Assembly (NCBI GenBank): GCA_964489945.1
Contig: CAZBAY010000003.1
Span: 1-33,820, forward strand
Length of the DNA: 33,820 nucleotides
Reading direction: 5' to 3'
From: an uncultured Planctomycetia bacterium
GTDB taxonomy: Bacteria; Omnitrophota; Gorgyraeia; 2-02-FULL-51-18
Below the pieces are notes generated by a model. The model was not told the DNA's origin and searched no databases. It saw only the letters and a program-made list of their open reading frames with translations. The translations under genes were made by a program, and so were the position numbers. Within the stretch, counting starts at the first letter, position 1; each line of letters begins with the position of its first letter. Positions 5,393-33,820 of this stretch are shown one piece after another.

Positions 5393-5394
5393 GG

Positions 5395-11381: not shown

Positions 11382-11388
11382 ACAATCC

Positions 11389-13442: not shown

Positions 13443-13458
13443 TTTTTTCCTTGTGTAA

Positions 13459-13479: not shown

Positions 13480-13488
13480 CTACGTTGA

Positions 13489-18386: not shown

Positions 18387-19376
18387 TCAGCGGGAAAGTC
18401 CGAGCGCCGAAGCGGGAGGTTCGCTCCGGAAAACAAGCTCGATGGTTTTTTTGGAAAGAAGGAGTTTGGTAAAACTTAAGGCCGCCTCGCGCCCCATCAG
18501 CCTCTCGGTCACGAAGGCCGCTCCCCACCGCGCGAAATTCAGCCCGTATTTGAGGAATAAAAGGCATTTCAGCGTGAAGAGCCCCGCGAAACCGTAATAT
18601 TTCCGCGCGAAATAAAGCTGGCTCCTCCGGTACTCGACAAGCACATTGAGAATATTTTTTTTCGCCGAGATCCCGCCGTAGTGAATGATCGTTATGTCCG
18701 AATTGTAGTGGATCTTGAAACCAAGCCGTTTGATCCGCTGGCACAGATCGATGTCCTCGAAGTACATGAAAAAACGCCCGTCCAAAAGGCCGGCGTCCAC
18801 AAGCGCGTCCTTCCGCGCCATGAGGCACGAGCCCGATACCCAGTCCACTTCCGTGTAGCCCGCGTATTTTTCCTCCAGATAGTCCCGGATCTTAAGATCG
18901 TTCAAAGACAGCCGGTGGTGCAGGAGCTTCCGGAACGCCTCGGAGATGAGCGTCGGGAAACTCCCCCAGGAAAGCTGGAGTTTGCCTTCCCCGTCGAGCT
19001 GGCGTGGACCGATCGCGCCGGTATTGGGATTCGCGATGAGATAATCCAGCATCCGGTCGAGGCAATTATCGAGGATCTTCGTGTCGCTGTTCAAAAGAAG
19101 GAGGTAAGCGCCTCGCGCGTTCGAGATGCCAAGATTATTGGCCCGGGAAAATCCCAGGTTCGCTCCCGTTTCGATACAAACGACCTCCGGGGCTTCCCGG
19201 CGGATCAGGTCGAGACTACCGTCCTTTGAGCCGTTGTCGATCAGGATGATCTCAAAACCGCACGCGGGAGGATTCGAGTAAATGGAACGGATGCACTGAA
19301 GGGTGTAATCGGGGGTCTCGAAATTGACGACGACGATACTTAAAGTGACGGGGTGATCGGCCTTGTTCTGCGCCAT
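18387..19376 (-). CDS. GT2 family glycosyltransferase
   Basis: LSIVVVNFETPDYTLQCIRSI, ILIDNGSKDGS, LLLNSDT and FMYFEDIDLC are typical of rhamnosyl/GalNAc-type GT2 enzymes. Confidence 0.82.
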   Translation of the reverse strand: MAQNKADHPVTLSIVVVNFETPDYTLQCIRSIYSNPPACGFEIILIDNGSKDGSLDLIRREAPEVVCIETGANLGFSRANNLGISNARGAYLLLLNSDTKILDNCLDRMLDYLIANPNTGAIGPRQLDGEGKLQLSWGSFPTLISEAFRKLLHHRLSLNDLKIRDYLEEKYAGYTEVDWVSGSCLMARKDALVDAGLLDGRFFMYFEDIDLCQRIKRLGFKIHYNSDITIIHYGGISAKKNILNVLVEYRRSQLYFARKYYGFAGLFTLKCLLFLKYGLNFARWGAAFVTERLMGREAALSFTKLLLSKKTIELVFRSEPPASALGLSR

Positions 19377-19386
19377 ATGTTTTTTG

Positions 19387-19395
19387 ATTATAACA
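19387..19395 (-). promoter_or_regulatory. perfect extended -10 element TGtTATAAT 10 nt upstream of the GT2 ATG (leaderless-type promoter candidate)
   Basis: The minus strand reads TGTTATAAT-CAAAAAACAT-ATG (TATAAT = 19392-19387, ATG = 19376-19374). No Shine-Dalgarno sequence lies in between. Confidence 0.45.
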
Positions 19396-19425
19396 CAGGT
19401 TTCAAAGGGCGTACGCCGGTTTTTG

Positions 19426-21597
19426 TCATCTGCCCGGCGCCGCGTAACGTTTTAACTTTTCCAGCCATTCCCCGGGCAGGCGCTTTTTGAGAGCTCCCTT
19501 GACGGCCGCGGTCAACCTACGCGGCATTCTCCACAAGGTCTCCCTCCGCATGACGTCTTTAAGCCGCGAAACGAGCTCATCGCCGCCGTTGCGGCCGCCG
19601 GACCGTTTGAGATGTTCCCCCATATGGGCTGAGATCCTGTCCTTGAACAAAAGTCCCTCGCGGTATTCATCAACGCTGCGGCTGTATATCAAATTGTAAC
19701 TCTGCGCGTGAACCCTCCATTTGAGGTGTGCCTCGGGCAGGTAAAAGAACCTCCCTTTCAGGCTCAACTGGGCCAAAAGCCACCAGTCAAACCAAGCATC
19801 GTGTTTGGCGGAAAAATCGATCCCGTCGAGCGACTTTTTCCGAGTCACGAACGAGGAGAAAGTCAGAATGAAATTGTAGTGGAGAAGGTACGGGAAAGCA
19901 TAAAAAGGTTTGTCAGCGATCTCCGAGTCCAAAAACTTCCTCCAATGGTATTGCTCGTTCAGCGAGCGGATGAGGCCGTCGTCTCCGAACATTTCGACGC
20001 CGCTGTGGACGACCGCTACGTCCGGATGGCGTTCCAGCACAGCGACCTTCTGGGCGAGGTTCTCCGGAAGCCAGACGTCATCCGCCTCAATGAACGCCAC
20101 ATAGTCGCTGGTACACTTTTCGAGGCCCAGCCGGTAGGTTTCAATGAGGCCTTTGTTCAGCCTGCCCTCATGGAAATAGACGCGTATCTTTCCGGGAAAT
20201 TCCCGCTCATACCGTTTAAGGATCTCCGGGGAGGCGTCGGATGAACCGTCATCCACAATGATAAGCTCCCACTTTTGATAGGTTTGTGCCAGGACGGAAT
20301 CCACAGCCTCCGAGATAAATTGCTGATAGTTATAACTGGGCAAAATAATGGAAACCTTCCCGGGCTCCATTTTGCGGCCCTCTTCATTTCTATTTCGCGC
20401 TGGAATACCCAGGTCTTCCTGAACTACCCTTTCCATCCGGTCCATGAAAGGGCCCCACGTCCACCGGCTCAAAACTTCGGAACGGCCCGCTTCTCCCATG
20501 CGGCGCATCGCGTCGGGATCGGCGAGGCACGCCTCGATCTTGCGAGCCCAGAGAGACTCGTCGCGCTCCAAAATGAAACCAGTCTTGCCGTCCACAATCG
20601 TTTCGAGGAAACCGCCCTCTTTGACGGCGAGCACCGGAACGGCGCACGCCATCGCTTCAAGCGGCACAAGGCCGAAAGGCTCGCGGACCGACGCGCATAA
20701 GACTAAAGCGCTTCCATGATAGGCGGCCTGCAATTCCTCCTCGCTGACACGGTGACGGACTTCGATCTCGACGCCCGTTCGGGAGGCCTCTTCTCCGCAT
20801 TTTTTCAAAAAACTGGGGCGGATAGCGTCACAGATAATGACAAGCTTCGGCCGGCGGCTCTCCGGAATAAGGGCCAGCGCGCGGATCAAAAAATCATGGC
20901 CTTTAAAAGGATCCATGCGGCCCACCGACAACACATGGGTTTTGGGTACGGAAGCTTCGCCCGGACTGAATCGCTCTGTGTCTACGCCTTGATAATTGAC
21001 CAGCGGTTCCACTCCGTAAACGCGTTTGATCCATGACGCCGTAAAACGGGAATTCGTCATCACCCGTTTCGCCGCCCACATGCTCCGCCTGTCTTCGCCT
21101 TTGATGTGAGCGCGGTCCGGCAAGCTTATGATCTTACGGATCTGCTGTCGGAGGGGTTGACGGAAAAATTCCAGCCATCCCGTTAAGTGTATGGCGGCAT
21201 TGCCGTTCGCCAAGGCTTCATACGGGCCGATGCGCAAAGGCTCCTGGGAATAAAAAATATGAGGCTTCTTTAAATAACGCAAAACGGGAGGAGAGCCGAA
21301 ATACCGACATTTGCCGATGAGAACCCATTCCGCGTCAGAGGCGTTGATCGCCTCGGCGATCCGGCGCGTCGCGCGGTCATAATTTTCAAACCGCGAGGGG
21401 CCTTCGAACCGCAGGGTTTCCACGACCACACGGTCGGCCCACGTTCCCAGCGGAAGAAAATCCTGTTCCGCGCTTGAAAAGGAATAGAGGGAGATTGTGT
21501 ATCCTCTCTCCTTCATCACCCGCATCTTGTCATGAAGGACCCTGAGGGCCCCGCCTGACGGCAGGTTATGAAAGACGGCTAGCTTCCGCATGCTCAT
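19426..21597 (-). CDS. two-domain glycosyltransferase: N-terminal GT4 (GT-B) + C-terminal GT2 (GT-A)
   Basis: The N-terminal half carries a GT4 C-domain signature (..SVREPFGLVPLEAMACAVPVLAVKEGGFLETIVDGKTG). The C-terminal half carries GT2 motifs (VSIILPSYNYQQFISEAVDSVLAQTY, LIIVDDGSSD, FIEADD). Confidence 0.82.
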   Translation of the reverse strand: MSMRKLAVFHNLPSGGALRVLHDKMRVMKERGYTISLYSFSSAEQDFLPLGTWADRVVVETLRFEGPSRFENYDRATRRIAEAINASDAEWVLIGKCRYFGSPPVLRYLKKPHIFYSQEPLRIGPYEALANGNAAIHLTGWLEFFRQPLRQQIRKIISLPDRAHIKGEDRRSMWAAKRVMTNSRFTASWIKRVYGVEPLVNYQGVDTERFSPGEASVPKTHVLSVGRMDPFKGHDFLIRALALIPESRRPKLVIICDAIRPSFLKKCGEEASRTGVEIEVRHRVSEEELQAAYHGSALVLCASVREPFGLVPLEAMACAVPVLAVKEGGFLETIVDGKTGFILERDESLWARKIEACLADPDAMRRMGEAGRSEVLSRWTWGPFMDRMERVVQEDLGIPARNRNEEGRKMEPGKVSIILPSYNYQQFISEAVDSVLAQTYQKWELIIVDDGSSDASPEILKRYEREFPGKIRVYFHEGRLNKGLIETYRLGLEKCTSDYVAFIEADDVWLPENLAQKVAVLERHPDVAVVHSGVEMFGDDGLIRSLNEQYHWRKFLDSEIADKPFYAFPYLLHYNFILTFSSFVTRKKSLDGIDFSAKHDAWFDWWLLAQLSLKGRFFYLPEAHLKWRVHAQSYNLIYSRSVDEYREGLLFKDRISAHMGEHLKRSGGRNGGDELVSRLKDVMRRETLWRMPRRLTAAVKGALKKRLPGEWLEKLKRYAAPGR

Positions 21598-22777
21598 GCA
21601 CTCCCTCTTTCGGCTCCGTTAAGCGGCCCGTTTCGGTGATCTTGTCGAGTGCCGCTTTCAGCCGCTTGGCATTTTCCGCCGCGCTGAATTTTAAAAGAAG
21701 ATGCTCGCGCGCATCCGTGTCGATGCGGTAACCGGGCTCAAGCACCTTACGGATCCCCCGTCCGATATCCTCGGCGGAAGACGGGTCGACAAATTCCGCG
21801 TACCCCTCGCCCGACTCAAGCATACCGCTGTTGTTCGAACACACGACGGGGATCCCGCAACCCACCGCTTCCAGGACCGGCAACCCGAACCCTTCATACC
21901 ACGAGGCGTAAACAAGCGCCCGCGCGCCGTGATACAGGCTGATAAGATCCTCTTTCGCCACTTTTTCGAGGATCCGGCAGCGCGGATCGCGGCCGATCGT
22001 ATCATAGACCGAGCGGTCACCCCACCCGTCGCCGCCCACAAAGATCAGATCCTCGGGGATCGAGGATTTGATCTTCAGAAAGGCGTTATAAATATTTTCC
22101 GCGTTTTTTCTGGGCTCAAAAGAACCGACGACGAGGAGATAGTTCCCTGTAGAAGGGCGGACCGAGCCGTCGCCCAAACAGAAATCGGGGTCATAGGTGT
22201 TGTACACGACGGAAATATTTTCCGCGGAGATCCCGTTCCGGAGCAGGTCGCGCCGCGTGTTTTCCGAAACCGCGATCACATGCCTCGCCTTCCGGTAGTT
22301 CGACAAAAAATCGATCTTCCAGTGAGGGGGAAAATCAAACCATTCACGGCGGATGACGGGACTCAGATCATGGCACAGCGCGACCCATTCCTCGGCAGGC
22401 GGTAGCGAACCCACGAGGTGGCGGAAAATGAACTGTTTGACGTCTCTGAGGCGGTGCCTGAAAGCGGGCGGCAGACAGCGGTATAGGTCCCGCACGGGCC
22501 GCCACACGCTTCTGCGGAGCCATTCCGTCGTGTAGTAGTAGAATTGTCCGTGGTCCCGGCCGTCCACCGAAATGTCGTAAGGAGGGGTCAAATTGAGGTA
22601 AAGGTCGTAACGCCCCTTGAGCTGTTTGGTATTTTCCAGCAGTGTGAACTCGTAACAGGGGACCAGCGGAAAAAGATCCCTGAATGACCTTTGGTGGACG
22701 GTTGTGCCGTTGCACCCTTTGGAATAGGCCAGCACTAAGACCCGGTTCACCAATGCCGCGCTCCCCTTCTTAGCCAC
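21566..22777 (-). CDS. GT4 family glycosyltransferase
   Basis: The C-terminal EX7E-type region YASWYEGFGLPVLEAVGCGIPVVCSNNSGMLE is present. It overlaps the downstream gene by 32 nt and the upstream gene by 8 nt. Confidence 0.8.
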   Translation of the reverse strand: MAKKGSAALVNRVLVLAYSKGCNGTTVHQRSFRDLFPLVPCYEFTLLENTKQLKGRYDLYLNLTPPYDISVDGRDHGQFYYYTTEWLRRSVWRPVRDLYRCLPPAFRHRLRDVKQFIFRHLVGSLPPAEEWVALCHDLSPVIRREWFDFPPHWKIDFLSNYRKARHVIAVSENTRRDLLRNGISAENISVVYNTYDPDFCLGDGSVRPSTGNYLLVVGSFEPRKNAENIYNAFLKIKSSIPEDLIFVGGDGWGDRSVYDTIGRDPRCRILEKVAKEDLISLYHGARALVYASWYEGFGLPVLEAVGCGIPVVCSNNSGMLESGEGYAEFVDPSSAEDIGRGIRKVLEPGYRIDTDAREHLLLKFSAAENAKRLKAALDKITETGRLTEPKEGVHEHAEASRLS

Positions 22778-23537
22778 AGGTTTCCACCACGCGCCCTTTG
22801 AACGCGGCCCATTCCCATCTCAACGCGCCGCGTGCCGTCGACAAAAGCGACTGGCCGCGCGCATAACCGAGCGCTTCCATGGCCCCGCCATGATGTTTCC
22901 AGAAAAGATGATGCAATTCCTCCGGCATCTCGTTCTTCCAGGCGCCGACCGCGCCGCGGCGGAAAAACGTCCGCCGCCGGAACGCCCTTTCCTCCGGTGA
23001 AAACCCGTGCTGAACGCCGCTGCCGTACGGCATGTCCTTCGTTCTAAGGTCGTCGAACGACGGCAGCTTCTCGCGCCGCGGCTCCGTCAGGTCCAGAAAG
23101 GGGCGCAGGCGTTCCGCGCAGGCGATCGGGTCCTGGATGAGATCCTCGAAACGGATCACAAGCGACGCGCGCCGGAGCCACTGCGAGACATTCGCGCTCC
23201 ACCCGCCAAAGTGGCTGCCATCATCGGCAAGGATCGCCTCGATGAGGTTCCGCCTGAAATCCGACCCCGGAGAGATGAGGTTCGATCGGTGGTGCGCGAT
23301 CGAGACCAGCGCGTCACGCCCGTCGCGCACGATATAGACCGCGGGGATCGCGGGGTCCGCGGGCACAAGCTCATTCGGAAGAAGGTGCGTCTTCACGACC
23401 GCATGCCGGCCGTAGTCCGGCTTCACGGGATACGCGGGCTCCTTGTGGAACGTGCTGGATTCGATGCCGTAGACTTCATGCAGTACGATACGGAAGAACG
23501 TATTGCCCGATCTCGGAAAGGACGCGAGCCAGATCAT
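22770..23537 (-). CDS. sulfotransferase, Sulfotransfer_1-like (PAPS-dependent)
   Basis: A 5'-phosphosulfate-binding-type loop sits at the extreme N-terminus (WLASFPRSGNTFF), and a 3'-phosphate-binding-type motif follows (YIVRDGRDALVS). It forms an ATGA overlap with the upstream gene's stop (23534-23537). Confidence 0.75.
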   Translation of the reverse strand: MIWLASFPRSGNTFFRIVLHEVYGIESSTFHKEPAYPVKPDYGRHAVVKTHLLPNELVPADPAIPAVYIVRDGRDALVSIAHHRSNLISPGSDFRRNLIEAILADDGSHFGGWSANVSQWLRRASLVIRFEDLIQDPIACAERLRPFLDLTEPRREKLPSFDDLRTKDMPYGSGVQHGFSPEERAFRRRTFFRRGAVGAWKNEMPEELHHLFWKHHGGAMEALGYARGQSLLSTARGALRWEWAAFKGRVVETCG

Positions 23538-24523
23538 CGCCGCGTAACCCCGATCAGGTCGAGAGCCTCGGCCGGCGTCGAGATCACGAACCGGCGCGCG
23601 TCACGATGTGACAATAACTGATCAATGTTCTTTTTTAAATGCTCGAAACGGTGCGGGTAAAGCGTCACGCAGGACCTCACCTCCAGCACGAGGAGAGGTT
23701 CTTCGGAAGAGCGCAGGATGCGCTCGATCCCCTGCGCGAACGCTTGCGGATTGATCGCAAGCCTCAGCGTGCGGAATTTGGGCCGCAGGCGTTTTCGGTC
23801 AAAAAGCGCGCAATAGGCGGTTTCAAACACGCCCCGTCGATCCGTGAAGGAGCCCGTGCTGACCGGGATCATCCACATGCCGTCCGTGCGTGACGGATCA
23901 GGTGTCCTGAAATCCTCGCGGCTCGGTCGGAACGGAAACAAAGGCACAGGCGTTAAATCCGGAACGGCTCCCGTCACGATCTCATTTTTCCTTTCCGCGC
24001 GACGCGGCTTCTTTCCTGCCTCGAGTGTCAGATCAAAATGCACGCCGAGAGTTTCCAAAAAGCGCGCAGTCTGATTGTTCAACCAGGCATCGCCAAAGCG
24101 GAACGAGCGGCACGGCCTCCCAAAGCTTTCAAGGAACGCGCGGAACGAGACATCCACGCAATGCTCGACCCACCGCTGGTCACCGTGGTCGACGATCCAC
24201 CGGCGCGCTTCGCGGTCCCAGCGCCAGGCATGCGTGTGCAAACCGATCTCGTCGCCGTTTTGCTCAAATTCATTGACGAGCTCCCGGTAGTTGCGGACAC
24301 CCCAGTCCGGCGCTCCCCACCCCACTTCGACCTGCGGATCCATGCGGAAAAACCACGAAAAATGGGGCGGTGAACCGGTCACCGACGCCAGACGCGGCCG
24401 CGCGCTCCTGAAAAAAACGGCTGTTTTCTCGAGGCCGCGCCAGGGCTCCAGACTTCCGGGCTCAAAAAGCCGCTTGTCGGGCTCAGCGTCCACGCAGACA
24501 ATGACCGGGATCTTTTTATTCAA
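23534..24523 (-). CDS. polysaccharide deacetylase-like (CE4-like) protein, putative
   Basis: VIVCVDAEPD and DEIGLHTHAW loosely resemble the CE4 Asp and His metal/catalytic motifs. I prefer the TTG start at 24523, which gives an 8-nt overlap with the upstream gene. The listed ATG at 24607 would overlap by 92 nt. The family call is weak. Confidence 0.45.
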   Translation of the reverse strand: MNKKIPVIVCVDAEPDKRLFEPGSLEPWRGLEKTAVFFRSARPRLASVTGSPPHFSWFFRMDPQVEVGWGAPDWGVRNYRELVNEFEQNGDEIGLHTHAWRWDREARRWIVDHGDQRWVEHCVDVSFRAFLESFGRPCRSFRFGDAWLNNQTARFLETLGVHFDLTLEAGKKPRRAERKNEIVTGAVPDLTPVPLFPFRPSREDFRTPDPSRTDGMWMIPVSTGSFTDRRGVFETAYCALFDRKRLRPKFRTLRLAINPQAFAQGIERILRSSEEPLLVLEVRSCVTLYPHRFEHLKKNIDQLLSHRDARRFVISTPAEALDLIGVTRR

Positions 24524-25496
24524 TCGACACCCCGCTCGGCTCCGGAACACCTTTGGTTTCACGATGGAACTCAACGATCGCCCGCGCGGCCGCGCGCACG
24601 TTCGCACGGATCTCCTCCGGCGCGGAAGGCGAATGCAAACTTAAGGGGCGTCCCTCCTCGAGTGAGACCAAGAGTTCCGTGAAATAACGCGAGACCGCTT
24701 CCTTGACCCTCAAGGACCGCAGGTTCCCCCAGTCGAGCAGTCTTGCGATCCTCTCGCGCAGTGTCGGCTCCGGCCGCGCGCCCTTGCTGGCCTTCGATAG
24801 ACCGCCGATATGCACAAGAGTGGGCGAATCTTTAAAAACGAGCTTTTCTCCCGCTGCCTGCAGCAGCAGGTTCAGCATCTTTCCGGTGTCATACGTTTCT
24901 TTTTTCAGGCCCGCCTGCACGAGCCACGGCCGGTGAGCCTGCGGCACGCGCTGCCAATAGCGGAAGCGGTCAAAGGCTATCCCCGTGCGCCGGATGCATT
25001 CGATAAGTTTCCGGTTGTCATAGACCGCAAAGAACGTGCTGCCTGCGCAGAAGCCGCCGGCCCGGCTGTGATTGCCCTTGATCTTCCTCGAATGGCGCAT
25101 AGGTGCCGCTTCGCCGGACGAGGCCCAGATCGCGCGGCCCGAGAACACGGCCGCATATTCACGCAGAAGCGGGACAAACTCCTGAAAAAAAGGGCCCGTA
25201 GCTAGAATGTCCGAATCCATGAAACAGAAATGGCTTGACGTCTCCTTCTCCTGGAGCCTGTTCAGGGCTTCCGCGTGCTTTAAAACCTCGCGCGGCGAAA
25301 GACGGAAAAACTGAAGCCGCGGACTTTCCGAACACAGCGTCTCCAGCAGCCTTTCTTCTTCGGGGAGACACCCGTTGGCGACAAGCCGGTAGGAGCAGTC
25401 CGACCATTTCAAAAGACTGCGCACGAAGAAGGCCAGATACCGGACCGTTCCGGGCGTATAGATGATGTTAAACGTGAAGTTCATGGTTCGAGGCAC
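24516..25496 (-). CDS. hypothetical protein, possible GT-A-fold transferase with DSD (DxD) motif
   Basis: 326 aa with no family I recognise. It has an N-terminal beta-strand-like FTFNIIYTPG and CFMDSDILATGPF. It sits in an operonic position between sulfotransferases. Confidence 0.5.
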   Translation of the reverse strand: MPRTMNFTFNIIYTPGTVRYLAFFVRSLLKWSDCSYRLVANGCLPEEERLLETLCSESPRLQFFRLSPREVLKHAEALNRLQEKETSSHFCFMDSDILATGPFFQEFVPLLREYAAVFSGRAIWASSGEAAPMRHSRKIKGNHSRAGGFCAGSTFFAVYDNRKLIECIRRTGIAFDRFRYWQRVPQAHRPWLVQAGLKKETYDTGKMLNLLLQAAGEKLVFKDSPTLVHIGGLSKASKGARPEPTLRERIARLLDWGNLRSLRVKEAVSRYFTELLVSLEEGRPLSLHSPSAPEEIRANVRAAARAIVEFHRETKGVPEPSGVSIE

Positions 25497-26130
25497 AGCG
25501 CAACTGCCTTAAGCGTACGCCCTCCCGGTACAATACCACGTCCTTTTCGTTCAACTGACGTATGGTTTCTTTGACCTCCTCGCCGACAGGAGGGAACTGG
25601 GCGCGAAATTCTTTGTTGATGTTCACATGGGCGGGCTCCACCCTTCCCCACCCCATCCGCTCTGCCAATTGCCGGAGGTCCTCGTCAAAATGTTCCATGA
25701 TGCCGACGAAGAAGAAATCCTTAAGCGCGGCTCCTTCGAGGAACCGCGACATACGGTTGCGGCTCGAGTCTTGGCGGACATAGTCCATCAGCGTTTCGTC
25801 CCGGCGGTGGTAGGCATGGGGCCGCTCGCCGCTGCCAGCCCTCTGGATGAAAAAATAATAATTGGACAGCACGCGCTCGACAGGTTCCCGGAGCCAGGTG
25901 ATCAAGGGCACCTCCGTTTCGTGATGGAGCTTTGAGATGTCCGAAAAGGTAAAATGGCCGTGCAAGACCTCTACGGAAGGAGGGATCGATCTCTCGAGAT
26001 CTTCGTTCCACTTTTTGCCGCTCACGCGCGTCACGTTGAAGACCTTTTTCTCGCCATAGACGCGCCTCAAGACGATACGGAACGACCGGCCCGCGGTTTT
26101 TGGGATATGGATAGATACTAACCGGATCAA
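25468..26130 (-). CDS. sulfotransferase, Sulfotransfer_2-like (paralog B)
   Basis: IHIPKTAGRSF PAPS-loop-type motif, LITWLREPVERVLSNYYF, and a clear paralog of the upstream gene. The TTG start at 26130 forms a TTGA overlap with the upstream stop. Confidence 0.72.
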   Translation of the reverse strand: MIRLVSIHIPKTAGRSFRIVLRRVYGEKKVFNVTRVSGKKWNEDLERSIPPSVEVLHGHFTFSDISKLHHETEVPLITWLREPVERVLSNYYFFIQRAGSGERPHAYHRRDETLMDYVRQDSSRNRMSRFLEGAALKDFFFVGIMEHFDEDLRQLAERMGWGRVEPAHVNINKEFRAQFPPVGEEVKETIRQLNEKDVVLYREGVRLRQLRCASNHELHV

Positions 26131-26828
26131 ACGTTGACCTCCTGATTTTCACGCCTTTTCTTTCTCAACGCGAGCGCCTCCTTATACAGGGCGATGTCCC
26201 GTTCGTTGAGGCTCCGGATCTCCTTCCGGATCTCCTCGGAAACGGGGGCTCTTTGAAGCTCACTGTCGTTATGATGAAGCGGCGGCGTCTTTTTCCAATG
26301 CAGCAAATGGGAAAGATCGGCGAGGTCTTCTTCAAAAAATTCCTGCACGCCAATGAAGAGAAAGTCCTCTGCTTTCATGCCGTCCAAAAACTTCGCGATG
26401 CGGTTCCGGGCGATCTCCGCCCTGGCATATTCCAGAAGCGTACGCTCCATTTTGTTCAAAAGAGCGACGTTCCGTTTTTGTTCCTCAAGGATGCCGCGCA
26501 GGACCTTTTGCAGATAAAAATAATTGGACAGGACCCTTTCCACGGGGTCCCTCACCCAGGTGATGAGCGGGATCCCCGCGTCGAGCCTGTAATGATGGGC
26601 CAGGTCCTTCACGCGAAAATGCCCGTGCAGCACCCGCGTCTCTCCCGGCAGACACGCGGGGCCCTGAACGGCTTTTTCGTGAGAGGCCTTTTCGTTCTCG
26701 AGAGGAATGTCCACACGCACAACGGCCTTCTCGCCGTACACGCTTTTCAGAATATTCCGGAAAGAGGTGCCGGCCGTTTTCGGGATATGAAGGGAGACGA
26801 GCTCAATTCTGGGCGGTGTCTGGAGCAT
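26127..26828 (-). CDS. sulfotransferase, Sulfotransfer_2-like (paralog A)
   Basis: LHIPKTAGTSFRNILKSVYGEK, VLHGHF, LITWVRDPVERVLSNYFY. These are the same motifs as in paralog B. Confidence 0.72.
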   Translation of the reverse strand: MLQTPPRIELVSLHIPKTAGTSFRNILKSVYGEKAVVRVDIPLENEKASHEKAVQGPACLPGETRVLHGHFRVKDLAHHYRLDAGIPLITWVRDPVERVLSNYFYLQKVLRGILEEQKRNVALLNKMERTLLEYARAEIARNRIAKFLDGMKAEDFLFIGVQEFFEEDLADLSHLLHWKKTPPLHHNDSELQRAPVSEEIRKEIRSLNERDIALYKEALALRKKRRENQEVNV

Positions 26829-28074
26829 GGGCCCAATCCGCCTGAAGATGGAACGCGGAGATCGTGGAAAATTTCCCGGTCACGATGAACCGGCTGATCG
26901 CGTGATGCCTGGCCAAGACCGTCCCCGCCTCGTCCCTCAACGCGACCGTCGTGAAGTAAACCCGGGGGCTGAGCTGAAGCTCCGGAAAGCGTACCCGGAC
27001 CCTCATTGTTTGCATCGTGTTCCGTATCTCAAAACCGCACAAGTTGGACCGGCAGTTCGAGACGGCATTTAGATCCTGATCGATAAAAATGACGTCCATG
27101 CGCGCCTTTTGGATCGCGGGGTCGAGATTAAAAGCGATCTCGAGCTCCAGATCATCGCGGTGAGCGATCGTGAAGACGCCGTCCCGGAAAGTCTGGCCGT
27201 TGCACGGAATAAAATCAGCGCCCTTGAAAACGGTCCCGCCCTTGGCCGTCGCGCTTCCGGTTTCATCGGCGAATTGCGCGTGATAATACTCGATGCCGGC
27301 CGAAATATCCTCCGACTCAAACACTTTCCTGCCTCCTTGGAGGACCATGAGCTCAGTGGCGATCCGTGTCATTTTGTCCCCCGATTGGGAAACCAGCACC
27401 GTCGCGCATTTTTTAGACAACTCATCGATCCGCTTGAAACATTTCGCTTTGAAGCCGCGGTCCCCTACCGCGAGAACCTCGTCGAGGAGCAGGATATCAG
27501 GCTCCGTCGCGACGACGATCGAAAAACCCAGACGCATCCGCATACCTGACGAATAAGTGGCGACCGGGGCGTCGATGAAACTCCCCAGTTCGGAAAAGTC
27601 GATAATAGAAGCGAGCTTCGCATCGATCATGCGGCGCGTCATCTTGAGAAGCGCGCCTTTCAAATAGATGTTCTCACGGCCGGACATAAGCGGGTGAAAG
27701 CCCGCCCCCAGCGAGATGAGGGAAGCCGTGCGGCCTTTCACCGCTATCTCCCCGGCATCCGGCGGCAGGATCCCGGCCAGAAGCCGCAGAAGCGTCGATT
27801 TTCCGCTGCCGTTCATCCCAACGATGCCCAAAACCTCCCCCCGGCGCAATTCGAAACTGACGTCCTGGAGGGCCCAGAACTCGTCCTTTCGAAGATCGCC
27901 GTTACGCGGCTTTATTCCCGCCAGGTTTTTTGAAAGATCGATGATGCCGTACCACATGCCCCGCTTCAAATCCTTGCAGAACTTCTTGTAAACGTTCTTT
28001 GCGGAAATGAGGACTTCCCCTTTTTCCGTCCGGGCCTCCGTATACCGGTCCTGCTCAAGGTGCGAATTTTTCAT
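26803..28074 (-). CDS. wzt: polysaccharide ABC exporter ATP-binding protein (Wzt/TagH-type) with C-terminal extension domain
   Basis: Walker A GMNGSGKST, signature YSSGMRMRLGF, Walker B ILLLDEVLAVGD, then about 165 extra C-terminal residues. I chose the ATG at 28074 because it forms an ATGA overlap with the Wzm stop. Confidence 0.85.
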   Translation of the reverse strand: MKNSHLEQDRYTEARTEKGEVLISAKNVYKKFCKDLKRGMWYGIIDLSKNLAGIKPRNGDLRKDEFWALQDVSFELRRGEVLGIVGMNGSGKSTLLRLLAGILPPDAGEIAVKGRTASLISLGAGFHPLMSGRENIYLKGALLKMTRRMIDAKLASIIDFSELGSFIDAPVATYSSGMRMRLGFSIVVATEPDILLLDEVLAVGDRGFKAKCFKRIDELSKKCATVLVSQSGDKMTRIATELMVLQGGRKVFESEDISAGIEYYHAQFADETGSATAKGGTVFKGADFIPCNGQTFRDGVFTIAHRDDLELEIAFNLDPAIQKARMDVIFIDQDLNAVSNCRSNLCGFEIRNTMQTMRVRVRFPELQLSPRVYFTTVALRDEAGTVLARHHAISRFIVTGKFSTISAFHLQADWAHAPDTAQN

Positions 28075-28943
28075 GTGTGTATTCTTTCGACGAGCTCGCT
28101 TTCGGAGACATAAAAAAGCCGTAAAGAAAGGAGAAAAACAGCCACCGCCAGAACAGCGGATACACCATAAGCCGCCGGATGGTAAAGCTTGCCGTGGAGA
28201 ATAATGTCCCGCGCCGAACAAACAAGATACGTCAGGGGATTCCAATGTATCACGGTTTGAAGAAACGGGTTTTGGATCTGGCCTGAATAGACTACCGGCA
28301 CCGACCAGATGAGAAGAGCCATGAAAGTGGCTATGGCTTTTTCTATATCAAAAGCCACTACTGAGATCATCGAGACGATAAGACCTAATCCCGCTCCCAG
28401 AAAAAAAAGCGGCAAAGCCACGAGCGGGAATAAGACAACGGCGGCGGTAGGAATGACGCCAAAAAAAACGAGCACCAGAAGATTGAGCGCCAGAGCGACA
28501 AAAAAATTGACGATCTGAAGGAGCGACTTTACGAACAAAAAAACTTCGTGAGGGTAATTGACCTGCAACATCAAATGCTGGCCCTCCTTGAGGGTCTGCG
28601 CGGCCGCGGTAAAAAAGCCCATGAAAAGACCCCATACGGATGAACCGATCAGAACATAAACAGGGTAAGGAACACCAACATCGCCTGGTTGAAGTACGCC
28701 GGAATGTTTGAGAAAGACCCAGACAAGAATGCCCGCCAGCGGCGTCAAGACAACCCAGGCCACCCCAATAAAGGATTTTTTGTAACTAACGAAGAAATCG
28801 CGCTTAAAAAGCTGCCAAATGAGTTCCCGTGAGTCGACGAGGCTCCGGATCATGACGACCCATGTGCCGAAATACCCCAATTCGTGGCGCTGATTGGGAC
28901 GGTAAACGGTGATCTTTTCGCCTTCTTGTGGATTGTTTTTCAT
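28071..28943 (-). CDS. wzm: polysaccharide ABC exporter permease (ABC-2 / Wzm-TagG type)
   Basis: 290 aa with 6 TM helices. The N-terminal ELIWQLFKRDFFVSYKKSFIGVAWVVLTPL is typical of ABC-2 permeases. Confidence 0.85.
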   Translation of the reverse strand: MKNNPQEGEKITVYRPNQRHELGYFGTWVVMIRSLVDSRELIWQLFKRDFFVSYKKSFIGVAWVVLTPLAGILVWVFLKHSGVLQPGDVGVPYPVYVLIGSSVWGLFMGFFTAAAQTLKEGQHLMLQVNYPHEVFLFVKSLLQIVNFFVALALNLLVLVFFGVIPTAAVVLFPLVALPLFFLGAGLGLIVSMISVVAFDIEKAIATFMALLIWSVPVVYSGQIQNPFLQTVIHWNPLTYLVCSARDIILHGKLYHPAAYGVSAVLAVAVFLLSLRLFYVSESELVERIHT

Positions 28944-28957
28944 CGCGAATTAAGGGC

Positions 28958-29716
28958 CTATTTTATACCATTCCGACGCCGGGTGACCATAAAAACCACT
29001 TCCCGATCTTTGGGGACCACGCGGACGTTTTTCCCGGAGATCATAAAAAGCCTGCGGCCCCGCGTGGCGTTGATCTCTCGGGCAAGCGCCGCCAAGTCGT
29101 GGTAACGGCGTCCATGAAGCACTTTCACCTCATCGCACACGTAGCCTCGGGAGCCCACACGGCAGTTGTATTCCGGCGCGAGTGTAGCCACCCGTAAAGA
29201 CGACAAAAAAAGCAGCCTACGAAAAGATGGCTGATCGTAGACACGGGAGACGGCACCGCGCGAATTTTCCTCATACACCTCAAGCCAGCGCCGCAGAAAA
29301 TCCCCGACCGCCGGTGATTTCCTGAATAAAATAACGCCCGCCTGAAATTCCGAAAAACTTTCCGGCACTTCGTCAGAACCATCGACTCGCCGGTTGGGCG
29401 AATGAGCCGCGGCGATATCAAATCGCGCCAGAAGCGGGAAAAGGTCCGAGAGATCCCCGCAGACATGAGTATCGGTATCCAGGTACAGCGTGTGCTCGTA
29501 GGGAGACAGCGGCAAATAGGCGATCTTGTCCCGGGAACTGCCGCGCGCGTCGGGGATCGGAATGACATTTTGAAAAAGCGCGTTCCTGACTTTTTGGTCC
29601 GAAAAAAGCGTGACCGGCAATCCGGGCATGTGTTCCTTGAGGCTCGCCGCCGAGCGGAGCGCCTCTTCGAGATACCTGGGTCCGGTCGCCACGTACACTG
29701 CGCCGCGGCGGCTCAC
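28958..29716 (-). CDS. GT8-like nucleotide-diphospho-sugar transferase
   Basis: AVYVATGPRYLEEA.., DxD motif YLDTDT and QAGVILFRK are GT8-like. I chose the GTG start at 29716, which forms a GTGA overlap with the upstream GT2 stop. The listed ORF start at 30088 lies 376 nt inside that GT2. Confidence 0.65.
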   Translation of the reverse strand: MSRRGAVYVATGPRYLEEALRSAASLKEHMPGLPVTLFSDQKVRNALFQNVIPIPDARGSSRDKIAYLPLSPYEHTLYLDTDTHVCGDLSDLFPLLARFDIAAAHSPNRRVDGSDEVPESFSEFQAGVILFRKSPAVGDFLRRWLEVYEENSRGAVSRVYDQPSFRRLLFLSSLRVATLAPEYNCRVGSRGYVCDEVKVLHGRRYHDLAALAREINATRGRRLFMISGKNVRVVPKDREVVFMVTRRRNGIK

Positions 29717-30651
29717 GAGGGCCACTTCGTGCGCCAGGATTGCGGAAAACGCCGAAACGTGTACCTCGGCGAGCCCTGCGTCAAAGAAACAAGGAACGAG
29801 CCCGCGCTCTTCCAATAGCGCCGGTTCCTGAAATAACGAACCGCGAACTTCGCGTACACCTCGGCGTAAACGGACCGCAGAGGGTCGATCGCGAAACTCC
29901 GCTGGATTAAAGGATAAAATTTCCGCACTCGCGCCACCCTGGCGGCATTGCGCTTGTCCAAATTGGACGGACCCGTCATTTGAGCATTGTGCTGCCGTCT
30001 CACAACGATCGGGGCCCTCGTAAAAACAGGATGAAACCCCGCGATGAGGCAGCGAAGATAAAAGTCGTAATCCTCCCCTATCGGACACTGCTCATCGAAA
30101 GATCCGGCTTTGTCGATCGCTTCCCTTGGGACGACCACCGACGAAGGGCAACGGATGAAGTTGGCCACGATCAGCTGGTGGGCAACAGAACGGTAGCGTT
30201 TGAGATCCGGCACCTGAACCGACGATCTTTTCTCTCCGCTTTTCATGTTCCAAATGGCCAGACCACTCACCGCGAACGTATTCTCCCGCCCTCTCAGGGC
30301 GGCTAGCTGGATCTTCAAATAATCCGGTTCCCACAGGTCATCATCGTCAAGAAAGGCGATGTATTTTCCCTTCGCTACCGCCAGCGCGCGGTTTCGCGCG
30401 CCGGTGGCCCCGCACCCGGTGCCCTCAGCGACCACATGAACCAGCGGAAAATCGTGCGCAATGACGGGACCCAGCTTCCCGCGGGGGCTGTCGTTCACGA
30501 CAAGGATCTCCGCGGAGCCGTCATAACTTTGAGCGTGAACGCTTCGGAGCGCTTCCTTCAGCATTTCGGGACGCTCAAACGTGGGGATCACCACCGAAAC
30601 ATCCGGCGCGCCGGAAGCCGCGTCCTGAGGAGATAATATTTTAATCGGCAT
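29713..30651 (-). CDS. GT2 family glycosyltransferase
   Basis: VSVVIPTFERPEMLKEALRSVHAQSY, ILVVNDS, IAFLDDDDLWEPDYL. I chose the ATG at 30651 (MPIKIL..). The listed ATG at 30723 is an alternative. Confidence 0.8.
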   Translation of the reverse strand: MPIKILSPQDAASGAPDVSVVIPTFERPEMLKEALRSVHAQSYDGSAEILVVNDSPRGKLGPVIAHDFPLVHVVAEGTGCGATGARNRALAVAKGKYIAFLDDDDLWEPDYLKIQLAALRGRENTFAVSGLAIWNMKSGEKRSSVQVPDLKRYRSVAHQLIVANFIRCPSSVVVPREAIDKAGSFDEQCPIGEDYDFYLRCLIAGFHPVFTRAPIVVRRQHNAQMTGPSNLDKRNAARVARVRKFYPLIQRSFAIDPLRSVYAEVYAKFAVRYFRNRRYWKSAGSFLVSLTQGSPRYTFRRFPQSWRTKWPS

Positions 30652-32071
30652 GGGAAACCGTGAGTTGGGACAACAAGGATTTTCCCTGCGCCGTTGGCAT
30701 GGACGCGCCGAGCCATTCCGCAAAAGTCGGGGCGAAATCCATCACCGATATGGGCTCCTTAAGCCGGCCAGCCGGAATTCCCGGGCCTTTCATGAAAAAA
30801 AGACCGTCCGGTTTGTGGTCACCGGTGCGGCATCCGTGATACTCGCCCTCGATCTCCCCCGTCTTGGGGGAAGTCACCGCGCGGATCGGCGCGCGGCGGT
30901 TCCACTCGACAATGAGATCCGGAAAGCGCGAGGTGTCCTCGCCTGGGTAGAGTTCTTCGATCCGATGTACTTTTTGAACAACAGGCTCCTTTGTTTCGAG
31001 ATTGATGAACTCGCCCAAGTCCCGGATCAGGCGATCGCGAAGCCTTTCATATCCGGCGCCGGGTTTCACGCGGCCATGCGGCTCGCGGCCAGCGAGGTTG
31101 ACCCGGATCCCGCCGTATACGGTGTTGTTGGGGACCTTGTAGCACAAGCGGTGGCCAAAACGGTCTCTCTTCGTCCTGAACCTCATCCAGAGATCATAAT
31201 GCCGCTCAAGACCCGCCAGCATCGCGTCCAAAACGGCGGTGCCGTCGTAGTGGGGCCCCATCCCGTGGCTTGCCAACACAAAAACCGCCGTCTCCGGACC
31301 CGCCTCTTCCAAAAGCCGGCCGATCTGGCTGTCTATTTCACGGTAAACATCCCGCAAGGGATCGCCGAGAGAAACAGTAAGCGCCGGATCGTGCTTGAAA
31401 TGCTGGCTATCGTGAATTCGCCAAAACTGGTGTCCGGCACAGTGGGATTCGGTAAAAACCGTGAGAAACAGATCCCATCCGCCCTTCCTTAAAAGATCGC
31501 GCGACAGTTCCCCTTTTCGCCGCACACGGTCCGTCAGGATATTCCGGAGTTCGCGGAACTCGTCCGGGGTTGTTCTCTCGCCGTCACAGCGGGGGATAGG
31601 ATTCAAACCGTATTTTTCTTTGACTTCTTCCGCCAGGCCTTCGGGCCAAGTGACGAACCCCTCCGGCTCGGGGTCGTGCGAAAACCAGTTGAAAAGCTGT
31701 ATACCGTTCAAATCCCGCGCAAGCCTCGTCCTCGGCACGTCAATGACGGCGATCCTTTTTCCCGCGCGGCTCAACGTTTCCCAGAAAAGGGGTTCCTTGA
31801 TCTCCGACGAGGGCAGTCTTTGGAATTCGTACGTGCCCGGCACCAACTGTTTGGGGCTGTAGCGCCCATGCCGCGTCGGCGACGTCCCTGTCGCAAAGGA
31901 CGGCCAGACGGCTCCGACAAAAAGAGCCGGAGGATTCTTTGTAATGCCCCAGGCCGCCTCCTCTAAAAGACGCCCGAACGTCGGCAGGATCCCTTCCCCG
32001 GCCCATTGCAAAATGAGGTCCTTGTCACCGGCATCCATCGCGATACAAAGAATCTTGGAAAGTGCGCTCAT
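30641..32071 (-). CDS. alkaline-phosphatase superfamily protein (type I phosphodiesterase/nucleotide pyrophosphatase-like), cytoplasmic
   Basis: ILCIAMDAGDKDLILQWAGEGILPTFGRL and ..VWPSFATGTSPTRHG.. resemble the NPP/Phosphodiest family N-terminus. VLASHGMGP lies in the distal metal-site region. No TM helix or signal peptide is present. Confidence 0.6.
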   Translation of the reverse strand: MSALSKILCIAMDAGDKDLILQWAGEGILPTFGRLLEEAAWGITKNPPALFVGAVWPSFATGTSPTRHGRYSPKQLVPGTYEFQRLPSSEIKEPLFWETLSRAGKRIAVIDVPRTRLARDLNGIQLFNWFSHDPEPEGFVTWPEGLAEEVKEKYGLNPIPRCDGERTTPDEFRELRNILTDRVRRKGELSRDLLRKGGWDLFLTVFTESHCAGHQFWRIHDSQHFKHDPALTVSLGDPLRDVYREIDSQIGRLLEEAGPETAVFVLASHGMGPHYDGTAVLDAMLAGLERHYDLWMRFRTKRDRFGHRLCYKVPNNTVYGGIRVNLAGREPHGRVKPGAGYERLRDRLIRDLGEFINLETKEPVVQKVHRIEELYPGEDTSRFPDLIVEWNRRAPIRAVTSPKTGEIEGEYHGCRTGDHKPDGLFFMKGPGIPAGRLKEPISVMDFAPTFAEWLGASMPTAQGKSLLSQLTVSHAD

Positions 32072-32091
32072 TTGATCATTTTAACCCAAAT

Positions 32092-33820
32092 TTAACTTGA
32101 ATAGCCACGTATTCGATTGCCGACGGAAAGGCGTAAACGCCGGACGATCAAAAGCAAACCGGCGGCGACGAAGAATGCCTGAGGAACCCACATCCAAACG
32201 ACAAAGGGCTTGAATTCAAAGCTCACCTCCTCCGTGCCGGGAGGCACGGTGACACCCAAATAAAAATCGTTGATCCGGACCGTTTTCAGGTCCACCCCTT
32301 TCGAACGCGCGCGCCAATGGGGGTGATACTGCTGGCTCACGAACAGAACGCTGTCGCGCTCGAGCGGCGACACACGGAAAACGATCTCATCGTCGAGCGA
32401 CACCGTACGAACAACGCGGAACGCCGCATGCGCTTCAAGCGGGCCCTTGAGCCGTATGCCGGAATCCGTTTCCGAGAAATCGGCCGTCTGCGCTTCAAGC
32501 CGCGCGCGCCACGCGGGCCGGTAAAATTTGTAGCCGTCCAGCTCGCCGATCCTTTTGAGGCGCTCCGCGGAAAGCTCATCGCGCGAAATGAACAAGCTGA
32601 TCCCCGTGTAGGTGAACGCATCGTCCCGGAGCCGCACGTCGGAGGAGATCTTATTGAAGATCCGTCCAAACGTGCTCGTGCCCACTTCGCTCAGCCGGCC
32701 AACGAGGTCCTGGTAATGCCGCGACGAGAGCGAGTCATAGGAATGGATACTGCGCAGGCCCGCGAGCGACTCCATGTTCGGCGGCAGAAGTTTCCCTTTT
32801 TCACTGATGAACGCATAGCGCGCGCCACCGGCCGTTTCGGATCGGATGAGATCCACGATCGCGGAACCTCTTTGGATCGCCCCAAGAGGCTGCGTTTTCA
32901 GCCTCACCTCGCCGAAGATCGCCGCAAAGACAAGCAACACAAGGAGGATGCGGCTTCGCGTGAGGAAAAAAAGATAAGCGGCGGCGATCATCAAACCATC
33001 CGTCAGCAGGGTCTCGACCGAGAAACCGTCCCCCTTTCCGCGTATCCAGAGCGGCACGACGATCCATTTCACAAGATAAAACGGCAGCACGCCTAACGCG
33101 AAGATCGCGTGGACGCGTCTGGCCGGGATGCCTTCGCGCAGGAGCCGGTCGGCCGCGCCGGCCGCGAGGACACAGGCGGGCACAAGCACCGGATAAAGCA
33201 GGAAATTGTTCCCGCGCGAGAGACCGAACCCGAGATGCTGCGCCGCGAAAAGCCTGACCGGCGGGACGAACATGAGTAGCATGACCGCCGCGATGCAGGC
33301 TTTCCAGTAGCGCCTTTCGGCCGATCCACGCTCCGCCAGCGCCAGGAAAAAGAGCGCGAGGAAAAGCGGCGTGAAGTCGGAAAAAAACCGCAGCGCTTTT
33401 GCGATCACCTGTCCCTCGATCTCCCCCGAGTGGAAATATTCGTCGGGCAGTGACCACCGGCCGGAAAACGCGGCGCGTGTATAAAGGTCCGCGAACACCG
33501 GCATCGCCGCAAGCACACCCGCGGCGGCCCAGGCTGCAAGGCCGGCACCGCGTCGCCATTTTTCGGCCGGACGCGCATCAAGCCGTGTGAGCTCAAGCCA
33601 CGTGAAGCCGGCGAGGAAATAAGTAAAGAGCACGACGAGCTGGGGATAGCCTGTCAAAAAAAGGCTGTGGGAGGCGAACGCGATCCCGACGCCTGCCGCG
33701 AGGGACGGTTTGCGCAGATAACGCGGCACGAGCCAGAAAAGCGCGACCGTCCAGCACACGGCGAACGACATCGGCAAATTCTTGTGGCGCGCAGCAAACC
33801 ACGAACCGAGCACAAAGAAT
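32092..33820 (-). CDS. large polytopic membrane protein, YfhO-like/GT-C-like (N-terminus beyond window edge)
   Basis: At least 10 N-terminal TM helices, a soluble domain of about 200 aa, then one terminal TM helix (VVWMWVPQAFFVAAGLLLIV). The frame is still open at base 33820. The family call rests on topology only. Confidence 0.5.
   Translation of the reverse strand, partial: FFVLGSWFAARHKNLPMSFAVCWTVALFWLVPRYLRKPSLAAGVGIAFASHSLFLTGYPQLVVLFTYFLAGFTWLELTRLDARPAEKWRRGAGLAAWAAAGVLAAMPVFADLYTRAAFSGRWSLPDEYFHSGEIEGQVIAKALRFFSDFTPLFLALFFLALAERGSAERRYWKACIAAVMLLMFVPPVRLFAAQHLGFGLSRGNNFLLYPVLVPACVLAAGAADRLLREGIPARRVHAIFALGVLPFYLVKWIVVPLWIRGKGDGFSVETLLTDGLMIAAAYLFFLTRSRILLVLLVFAAIFGEVRLKTQPLGAIQRGSAIVDLIRSETAGGARYAFISEKGKLLPPNMESLAGLRSIHSYDSLSSRHYQDLVGRLSEVGTSTFGRIFNKISSDVRLRDDAFTYTGISLFISRDELSAERLKRIGELDGYKFYRPAWRARLEAQTADFSETDSGIRLKGPLEAHAAFRVVRTVSLDDEIVFRVSPLERDSVLFVSQQYHPHWRARSKGVDLKTVRINDFYLGVTVPPGTEEVSFEFKPFVVWMWVPQAFFVAAGLLLIVRRLRLSVGNRIRGYSS

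Follow-up and report, generated by a model that had tools for sequence, protein, structure and literature searches.

Cytoplasmic sulfation of carbohydrates before export, with 3'-phosphoadenosine 5'-phosphosulfate (PAPS) as the donor, has been described for the rhizobial NodH/NoeE, LpsS, and KpsS enzymes and the mycobacterial Stf0 (PMC11625862). In Vibrio sp. KMM 8419 and Cobetia marina KMM 1449, sulfated capsules are made by cytoplasmic sulfation followed by ABC export, with the sulfated products verified by nuclear magnetic resonance, and the locus of Vibrio sp. KMM 8419 contains three sulfotransferase genes together with cysNDC (PMC11641403, PMC11766843). The synechan (xss) cluster of Synechocystis PCC 6803 encodes several glycosyltransferases (GTs) and two sulfotransferases of distinct subfamilies, and sulfotransferase genes are also found in ABC-type clusters of other cyanobacteria (PMC8205485). 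For Pontiella sulfatireligans F21, a member of the PVC group, a putative cluster for a sulfated glycosaminoglycan (GAG) and a sulfated exopolymer in culture have been described (PMC7356697). Here, we describe an operon at positions 18387-33820 of contig CAZBAY010000003.1, in which the genes for a Wzm/Wzt transporter, three sulfotransferases, and a set of GTs lie together. The stretch analyzed, hereafter the window, is the whole 33,820-bp NCBI contig.

This operon very probably builds a sugar polymer, sulfates it inside the cell with three enzymes, and exports it. We put the probability that its product is a lipid-linked surface glycan, sulfated in the cytoplasm from PAPS and then exported by the ABC transporter, at roughly 65%. 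What is new is that the same sulfotransferase trio recurs beside Wzm/Wzt across phyla, including forms in which one sulfotransferase is fused to a GT.

Operon, sulfotransferases and recurrence of the cassette

All 14 open reading frames (ORFs) listed for this region in a first-pass annotation of the contig are present, tightly packed and in one direction on the minus strand. After refinement of the starts, adjacent genes share 4-32 nt or lie ≤49 nt apart, and they form one translationally coupled operon. The contig end falls inside a YfhO-like gene, which has no stop codon upstream of its first start before the window ends; the operon is thus truncated upstream. Pfam identified three GT2s, one GT4, and one GT4-GT2 fusion, in agreement with the earlier labels, and the number of cytoplasmic GT domains in the operon is seven. 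Below, the Sulfotransfer_1 enzyme is called ST1, the two Sulfotransfer_2 paralogs ST2a and ST2b, and the two GT2 genes GT2a and GT2b; L-numbers denote related loci or contigs that were compared with the window.

The claim of three sulfotransferases from two families held in the hidden Markov model search, as all three proteins passed the curated Pfam cut-off, which is 22 bits for both Sulfotransfer_1 and Sulfotransfer_2 (scores in Table 1). The motifs HIPKTAG, FPRSGNT, and RDGRD named in the annotation are present. Among 32 ST1 homologs, the 5'-phosphosulfate-binding (5'-PSB) loop PRSGNT, the catalytic VKTH, the 3'-phosphate-binding (3'-PB) segment RDGRDxxxS, and FFRRG are fully or almost fully conserved, with Arg in place of the usual Lys in the 5'-PSB loop. 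PRSGNT, VKTH51, R71...S79, and FFRRGxxGxWK of ST1 align to their counterparts in estrogen sulfotransferase. A profile of these 32 homologs matched the cytosolic SULTs in the PDB (SULT1E1, E 4.5e-16), and also Teg12 and StaL.

ST2a and ST2b are small soluble proteins (220-233 aa) that share 42% identity and fall into separate ortholog classes across loci. In an alignment of 50 ST2 sequences, K17, H68-G69-H70, R93, P95, R98, and S101 are invariant. PKTAGTS, HGH, and RDPVERVLS of ST2a, and HGH and REPVERVLS of ST2b, align with the heparan sulfate (HS) 2-O-sulfotransferase 3f5f, whose corresponding segments are PKTASTS, HGH, and RDPIERLVS. Searched across the whole PDB, the ST2 family profile matched only HS2ST (6.7e-9) and HS6ST3 (2.1e-8).

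A Kyte-Doolittle scan of ST1, ST2a, and ST2b found no 19-residue window above 1.1, and hence no segment resembling a transmembrane helix. A signal peptide would not fit, since their nucleotide-binding loops already start by residue 15. The annotation's statement that the three enzymes lack signal peptides and transmembrane segments is thereby borne out. The three reading frames are uninterrupted and translationally coupled. Judged from these motifs and the hydrophobicity scan, ST1, ST2a, and ST2b are predicted to be intact, soluble, cytoplasmic PAPS-type enzymes.

The ST1 family comprises at least 861 clusters at 90% identity and is encoded in 281 GTDB species-representative genomes. Carriers include Planctomycetota, Saprospiraceae and other Bacteroidota, Lentisphaerales, Acidobacteriota, and Chloroflexota, and among them are the cultured Phaeodactylibacter xiamenensis, Planktosalinus lacus, Neolewinella aurantiaca, Mangrovimicrobium sediminis, and Halieaceae GM1-29. 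The nearest named homolog of the window ST1 is a partial, 81% identical sequence from a metagenome-assembled genome (MAG) of Candidatus Omnitrophota. The 14 window proteins were searched against six-frame ORFs of the best 80 ST1 loci; because several contigs are short, the resulting counts are lower bounds. Wzt was found in 44 of the 80 loci, and Wzt, ST2, and ST1 occurred together in 39. At least one ST2 lies within 10 kb of ST1 in 56/80 loci, 41 loci have at least two ST2 genes, and 43 have at least three sulfotransferase ORFs of the Sulfotransfer_1 and Sulfotransfer_2 families. The cassette extends over hundreds of species of Bacteroidota, Planctomycetota, Acidobacteriota, and Chloroflexota, and probably of Omnitrophota.

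In most of these loci (62/80), ST1 is the N-terminal part of a ~690-aa ST1::GT4 fusion, and in six others it is directly followed by a separate GT4. One fusion checked with Pfam contained both Sulfotransfer_1 and Glycos_transf_1. The window genes for ST1 and GT4, which overlap by 8 nt, are the split version of this fusion. We know of no characterized sulfotransferase-glycosyltransferase fusion. An example is encoded at 9992-12043 of L063 (Planktosalinus lacus), with 61 further genome loci carrying one. Tandem two-domain ST2 proteins, corresponding to a fused ST2a/ST2b pair, were also observed (P0370, 472 aa; P0371, 747 aa; P0379, 490 aa).

Between ST2b and ST1, the window carries two inserted genes, one for a GT with a DxD motif and one for a deacetylase-like protein. 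The sister contig L003 encodes an ST1 that is 87% identical and keeps the order ST1-GT4...GT2b-PMT_2, and its protein P0246 falls in the same 90%-identity cluster as GT2b. A sulfotransferase-GT2 fusion stands there in place of the GT2 half of the GT4-GT2 enzyme. The N-terminus of this 1008-aa protein (L003 3485-6511) resembles Sulfotransfer_1 (41 bits); the protein also has a GT2 domain that shares 64% identity with its counterpart in the window GT4-GT2, and a further ~420 residues match no family. Its domain content would make it a fourth sulfotransferase, joined in this case to another GT family. In the more distant L086, Wzm, Wzt, the DxD GT, the deacetylase-like protein, the GT8-like protein, ST2, and ST1 are found together, along with a fusion homologous to GT4-GT2. 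The window is thus a mosaic of a widely shared sulfation and export core and lineage-specific GT and modification modules.

In L022, L037, L056, L063, and other Bacteroidota loci, frequent neighbors of the cassette are a ~836-aa ORF family, a ~600-aa adenylation-carrier protein, and an LpxL-like acyltransferase. The ~836-aa family looks polytopic with an SGNH-like C-terminus by inspection, and its L063 member has no Pfam match. Further neighbors in Bacteroidota are ~1050-aa polytopic membrane proteins; in addition, sulfotransferases of a third family, marked by a GVPRSGTT loop, occur in 20 loci. These genes hint at more acylation and sulfation of the product.

Genes for adenosine 5'-phosphosulfate (APS) kinase were sought within 10 kb of the cassette, using an E. 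coli CysC sequence as the probe, with one match confirmed by Pfam. APS kinase was found in 5/80 loci (L071, L006, L046, L074, and L082). In L071 (Bacteroidia MAG JAGPCK010000024.1, 4361-15030), one strand carries cysC-cysD-cysN-methyltransferase-Wzm-Wzt-ST1::GT4-ST2a-ST1::GT4, then an unannotated gene and MBOAT; its cysC is the Pfam-confirmed gene (APS_kinase, 220 bits). The L071 cassette thus includes its own genes for making PAPS. The APS kinase genes near these five loci, and above all cysC-cysD-cysN upstream of the L071 cassette, are strong evidence, by association, that the cassette consumes PAPS.

Proposed pathway and competing readings

Which substrate is sulfated, at how many positions and when, where the product ends up, and whether it is a long polymer are all inferred, and the pathway may run as follows. 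A lipid-linked surface glycan, O-antigen- or capsule-like, would be made by an ABC-transporter-dependent route. Its chain would be built at the cytoplasmic face by GT2, GT4, GT-A, and GT8-like enzymes, including the two-domain GT4-GT2 as candidate polymerase. While the chain is being elongated, or shortly thereafter, ST2a, ST2b, and ST1 would attach sulfate esters to it at up to three different positions, with ST1 acting in step with the GT4 encoded directly downstream. The deacetylase-fold enzyme may unmask an amine by de-N-acetylation. The finished sulfated chain would then be exported by Wzm/Wzt, after which GT-C enzymes (YfhO-like and PMT_2-like) may add side sugars from a donor supplied by a short GT2.

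Several observations weigh against this pathway. PAPS-synthesis genes (sat/cysDN, cysC), CysQ, and sulfate-uptake genes were not found in the 33.8-kb window, nor were an initiating phosphoglycosyltransferase, a WaaL ligase, or an outer-membrane export component; these last three may be encoded elsewhere, given that the operon is cut by the contig end. The nearest solved relatives of ST1 are small-molecule sulfotransferases and not glycan sulfotransferases, and no cassette member has a characterized product in the literature searched.

The kinship of ST1 with small-molecule enzymes would also suit a small sulfated product, either a glycolipid or an oligosaccharide, instead of a long polysaccharide; such a product would be comparable to NodH-sulfated Nod factors exported via NodIJ or to mycobacterial sulfoglycolipids. 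Some genomes have a compact core with only two GT4 domains, genes for MBOAT, acyltransferase-like, and adenylation proteins are frequent neighbors, and Wzt scores 86 bits on the NodI models. Wzt is, however, far closer to exporters of O-antigen and teichoic acid. Its best NCBIfam matches are TagH (179 bits) and galactan Wzt/RfbE, and its best PDB matches are the 6amx/6oih/7k2t group (E 8e-52), followed by TarH/TagH; the entries are titled just "ABC transporter", and we take this group to be Aquifex aeolicus O-antigen Wzt. Seven cytoplasmic GT domains, a two-domain GT4-GT2, and GT-C enzymes are also typical of polymer loci. A small glycolipid is possible for the compact versions of the cassette, but it fits the GT-rich window operon poorly and is rather unlikely overall.

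The wzm and wzt genes overlap by 4 nt, and no window gene matched a Wzx or Wzy family in Pfam. Wzt carries a C-terminal extension with a match to Wzt_C (E 9e-6) that falls under the cut-off, and this extension is possibly a carbohydrate-binding Wzt_C domain. In Wzm/Wzt systems such a domain is present only where export depends on a cap. WbdD of E. coli O8/O9a makes a methyl/phosphate cap, the caps known in Wzm/Wzt O-antigen systems are methyl, phosphomethyl, or Kdo, and we know of no sulfate cap among them. By analogy, the sulfotransferases might be chain terminators, with sulfate at the non-reducing end stopping polymerization and being read by the Wzt C-terminal domain. The position of their genes directly after wzm-wzt, which is usual for terminator genes, would agree with this, as would the constancy of Wzm-Wzt-sulfotransferase between loci whose GT sets differ. 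Three to five sulfotransferases per locus would nevertheless be excessive for a single cap, and several loci have a more conventional terminator, a methyltransferase, directly upstream of wzm. We consider a sulfate cap unlikely mainly because only 6/45 cassette-linked Wzt proteins carry the extension; the others are bare ATPases of ~260 aa that keep the same sulfotransferases.

The deacetylase-like protein bears on a further alternative, a split bacterial version of animal NDST, in which it would free an amine and the abutting ST1 would N-sulfate it to give a heparan-like N-sulfated glycan. Its gene overlaps the start of ST1 by 4 nt. An AlphaFold2 model (pLDDT 95.1) shows a glycoside-hydrolase/deacetylase (beta/alpha) barrel, and the Foldseek matches include a Parabacteroides glycoside hydrolase/deacetylase (3lm3, 2.3e-9), ArnD (8t0j, 1.1e-8), and CE4 enzymes (probability 1.0, TM ~0.5). 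The fold thus upholds the label "deacetylase-like" given in the annotation, for which the sequence match is weak (Table 1). The NDST1 deacetylase domain (E 9e-5) and WbmS appear lower in the list, with NDST1 ranked after ArnD, CE4 deacetylases, PuuE, and GH57 enzymes. Invariant residues of the family include E14, D62, D91, H96, and H98. H96xH98 and the invariant acidic residues are candidates for a metal triad and base, with a spacing unlike that of the canonical CE4 motif, H(S/T)xxH. N-sulfated exopolymers, which have been reported in Pontiella (PMC7356697), would be in line with such a product. ST1 is nevertheless nearer to O-sulfating SULTs than to NST domains, and the deacetylase-like gene was found in none of the 80 genome loci with ST1, so that ST1 does not depend on this protein. 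N-sulfation of this kind is accordingly quite improbable.

The deacetylase-fold family adjoins Wzm/Wzt in L086 and L087, where its gene either separates wzm from wzt or comes immediately after them (L087 8663-12336, L086 1977-6949). No sulfotransferase was called in L087 in the 6.7 kb downstream, to the contig end. Because of this placement beside wzm/wzt, in L087 without a called sulfotransferase, a role tied to export or to lipid-linked intermediates, as for ArnD, is suggested rather than one in sulfation.

Finally, it is highly improbable that the glycan is unsulfated here, whether because no PAPS is made or because the enzymes are relics: the PAPS genes missing from the contig and a host probably from an uncultured lineage could point that way, but catalytic and cofactor-binding residues are intact in all three genes, their coupled frames are unbroken, and the 87%-identical ST1 ortholog in L003 indicates purifying selection. 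The reading that we prefer remains PAPS-dependent sulfation in the cytoplasm, acting on a lipid-linked glycan that the ABC transporter exports afterwards.

Accessory genes and the remainder of the contig

Coordinates of the operon genes and of other features in the window are listed in Table 1. The protein that the annotation had left as an unassigned DxD protein was modeled with AlphaFold2 (pLDDT 92.6), and Foldseek matched the model to SpsA, TarP, GtrB, and RmlT at E ~1e-7. On the basis of this model, it is predicted to be a glycosyltransferase of the GT-A/GT2 fold; D90, D92, and H225 are invariant. The GT8-like and YfhO-like labels stand on sub-threshold Pfam matches only. In a PDB sequence search, the DTD region of the GT8-like protein aligned to GlyE (5gvv) at an E value of 0.9 only, and a 48% identical homolog lies beside the deacetylase-like gene in L086. 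The YfhO-like protein had no relative in the metagenome scan.

No relative of the NPP-like protein was found in a PDB sequence search. Across 126 metagenome loci, its family keeps company with a GT2 and not with sulfotransferases; in a set of 80 metagenome loci, a sulfotransferase never accompanied it. A role as a sulfation accessory, for example in PAP/PAPS turnover, was ruled out on these grounds, and the NPP-like gene and GT2a are therefore treated as a separate module.

Just outside the operon, a GT2 gene and a PMT_2/ArnT-like gene form a pair convergent with it, which recurs beside the homologous operon in L003. This pair probably belongs to the same system as a post-export glycosylation arm, and the short GT2 is probably a polyprenyl-phosphate sugar synthase that feeds the GT-C enzymes. 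A search of the window genes against NCBIfam gave no match except for Wzt. Promoter and terminator scans of the window gave results at chance level only.

The remaining contig holds an unrelated cluster for nitrate/nitrite reduction and molybdenum cofactor synthesis, with genes for MoeA, a TauE-like permease, a MoaC-MoaB fusion, MoaA, an SLAC1/TehA-like channel, a molybdopterin oxidoreductase, NirD, and NirB. Also encoded there is a 553-aa fusion that joins a 4Fe-4S dicluster protein to a DmsC-like membrane anchor. Two tRNA genes are the sole Rfam matches in the window.

Table 1. Features of the 33,820-bp window, with the evidence for each assignment.
Feature	Position	Strand	Evidence
YfhO-like multi-pass membrane protein, putative GT-C, 5' end cut	32092..33820	-	Pfam YfhO 14.2 bits, below cut-off, C-terminal part only; ~8 hydrophobic segments
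Cytoplasmic alkaline-phosphatase-superfamily enzyme (type I phosphodiesterase/NPP-like)	30641..32071	-	Pfam Phosphodiest 75 bits; no transmembrane or signal segment
GT2a, GT2 glycosyltransferase, partner of the NPP-like gene	29713..30651	-	Pfam Glycos_transf_2 83.6 bits; refined start ATG 30651
GT8-like putative glycosyltransferase with DxD motif, weak assignment	28958..29725	-	Pfam Glyco_transf_8 12.9 bits
Wzm, ABC-2 permease	28071..28943	-	Pfam ABC2_membrane 40 bits; multiple transmembrane segments
Wzt, ABC ATPase with C-terminal extension	26803..28074	-	Pfam ABC_tran 79 bits; Wzt_C 26.2 bits against a cut-off of 30.4
ST2a, HS2ST-like PAPS sulfotransferase (predicted)	26127..26828	-	Pfam Sulfotransfer_2 38.6 bits
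ST2b, paralog of ST2a	25468..26130	-	Pfam Sulfotransfer_2 35.1 bits
Divergent GT-A (GT2-fold) glycosyltransferase (predicted), "DxD protein"	24516..25484	-	AlphaFold2 and Foldseek
Cytoplasmic deacetylase-fold enzyme (ArnD/CE4-like)	23534..24523	-	AlphaFold2 and Foldseek; Pfam Polysacc_deac_1 13 bits
ST1, SULT-like PAPS sulfotransferase (predicted)	22770..23537	-	Pfam Sulfotransfer_1 65.3 bits
GT4 glycosyltransferase	21566..22777	-	Pfam Glycos_transf_1 76 bits
Two-domain GT4-GT2, candidate polymerase	19426..21597	-	Glycos_transf_1 106.9 bits (residues 218-373), Glycos_transf_2 112 bits (416-583)
GT2b, GT2 glycosyltransferase, last operon gene	18387..19376	-	Pfam Glycos_transf_2 82.2 bits
PMT_2/ArnT-like GT-C membrane glycosyltransferase	16938..18386	+	Pfam PMT_2 66 bits, PMT 55.5 bits
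Short soluble GT2	16251..16925	+	Pfam Glycos_transf_2 122.5 bits
Nitrate/nitrite reduction and molybdenum-cofactor cluster	4163..15921	-	
tRNA-Ser(CGA)	2808..2895	+	Rfam
tRNA-Arg(ACG)	1393..1468	-	Rfam
392-aa ORF	87..1265	+	Matches only the middle (positions 299-643 of 713) of the glycogen phosphorylase model

Comparison with known systems

The functional core proposed in the first-pass annotation, PAPS-type sulfotransferases with Wzm/Wzt and GTs, is supported by the model matches, motifs, predicted solubility, the single operon, and the fusions; its framing as a rarity did not survive. The trio beside Wzm/Wzt recurs in many phyla and hundreds of bacterial species. Multiple sulfation had also been presented as a trait otherwise associated with animal GAGs. 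This was overstated, because Vibrio and Cobetia are documented to make sulfated capsules by an ABC-dependent route with several sulfotransferases, and the synechan locus and the Pontiella cluster have already been described. In a full-text literature search, we found no description of a Wzm/Wzt cassette with ST2-ST2-ST1/GT4 or of a sulfotransferase-glycosyltransferase fusion. The locus is thus a useful lead rather than a rarity.

We suggest, tentatively, that the Wzm-Wzt-ST2a-ST2b-ST1/GT4 core might be an unrecognized, horizontally spread module, in which GT-coupled sulfation of the growing chain would give a defined, multiply sulfated GAG-like surface polymer, and that the sulfated GAG-like polymers reported from sludge granules and biofilms could originate from it. 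The isolate names of MAGs with the cassette often point to activated-sludge samples. Which organisms produce such polymers in wastewater granules and biofilms is called an open question in the literature (PMC7356697). The cassette may help to explain which community members do so. Sulfated polysaccharides are valued as biomaterials and drug leads, and to our knowledge very few bacterial polysaccharide sulfotransferases have been characterized. The cassette offers compact soluble HS2ST-like and SULT-like enzymes and natural sulfotransferase-glycosyltransferase fusions, and since cultured strains carry it, genetics and glycan chemistry offer a direct test of the prediction.

Compared with the animal HS 2-O- and 6-O-sulfotransferases (3f5f, 5t03), ST2a and ST2b share the PKTAxTS 5'-PSB, HGH, and RDPxxRxxS 3'-PB elements. 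The animal enzymes are Golgi type-II membrane proteins that act on finished proteoglycan chains, whereas ST2a and ST2b are predicted to be soluble and cytoplasmic, and sequence identity is low. NodH/NoeE, LpsS, KpsS, and Stf0 provide one sulfotransferase per substrate (lipo-oligosaccharide, lipopolysaccharide, K-antigen, or trehalose); unlike the cassette, they have neither a conserved three-enzyme set nor a sulfotransferase-glycosyltransferase fusion. The predicted Pontiella cluster resembles the window in its GT2/GT4, sulfotransferase, YfhO-like protein, and polyprenyl-phosphate glycosyltransferase; it differs in that its figure legend gives a single sulfotransferase gene and mentions no ABC transporter (PMC7356697). 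Synechan follows a Wzx/Wzy route, with units flipped and then polymerized outside, whereas in the window the chain would be finished, and presumably sulfated, before ABC export.

The Wzm/Wzt O-antigen pathway (WbdD of E. coli O8/O9a; the Aquifex structures) is similar to the window in transporter family, in modification genes placed after wzm-wzt, and in multidomain GT4-type enzymes, and in both the Wzt may carry a carbohydrate-binding module. Most relatives of the cassette, in contrast to the capped O-antigen systems, lack this module in Wzt. By gene content, the Vibrio and Cobetia loci are also like the window, with a cytoplasmically assembled glycan, sulfotransferases, PAPS as donor, and an ABC transporter. 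They contain KpsMT/KpsDE, Kdo priming, and cysNDC, whereas the window has an O-antigen-type Wzm/Wzt exporter, no PAPS genes in view, and an unrelated lineage. A sulfated-polysaccharide locus is defined in PMC11641403 by sulfotransferases together with PAPS genes; the window has the former without the latter, and some loci homologous to it contain both.

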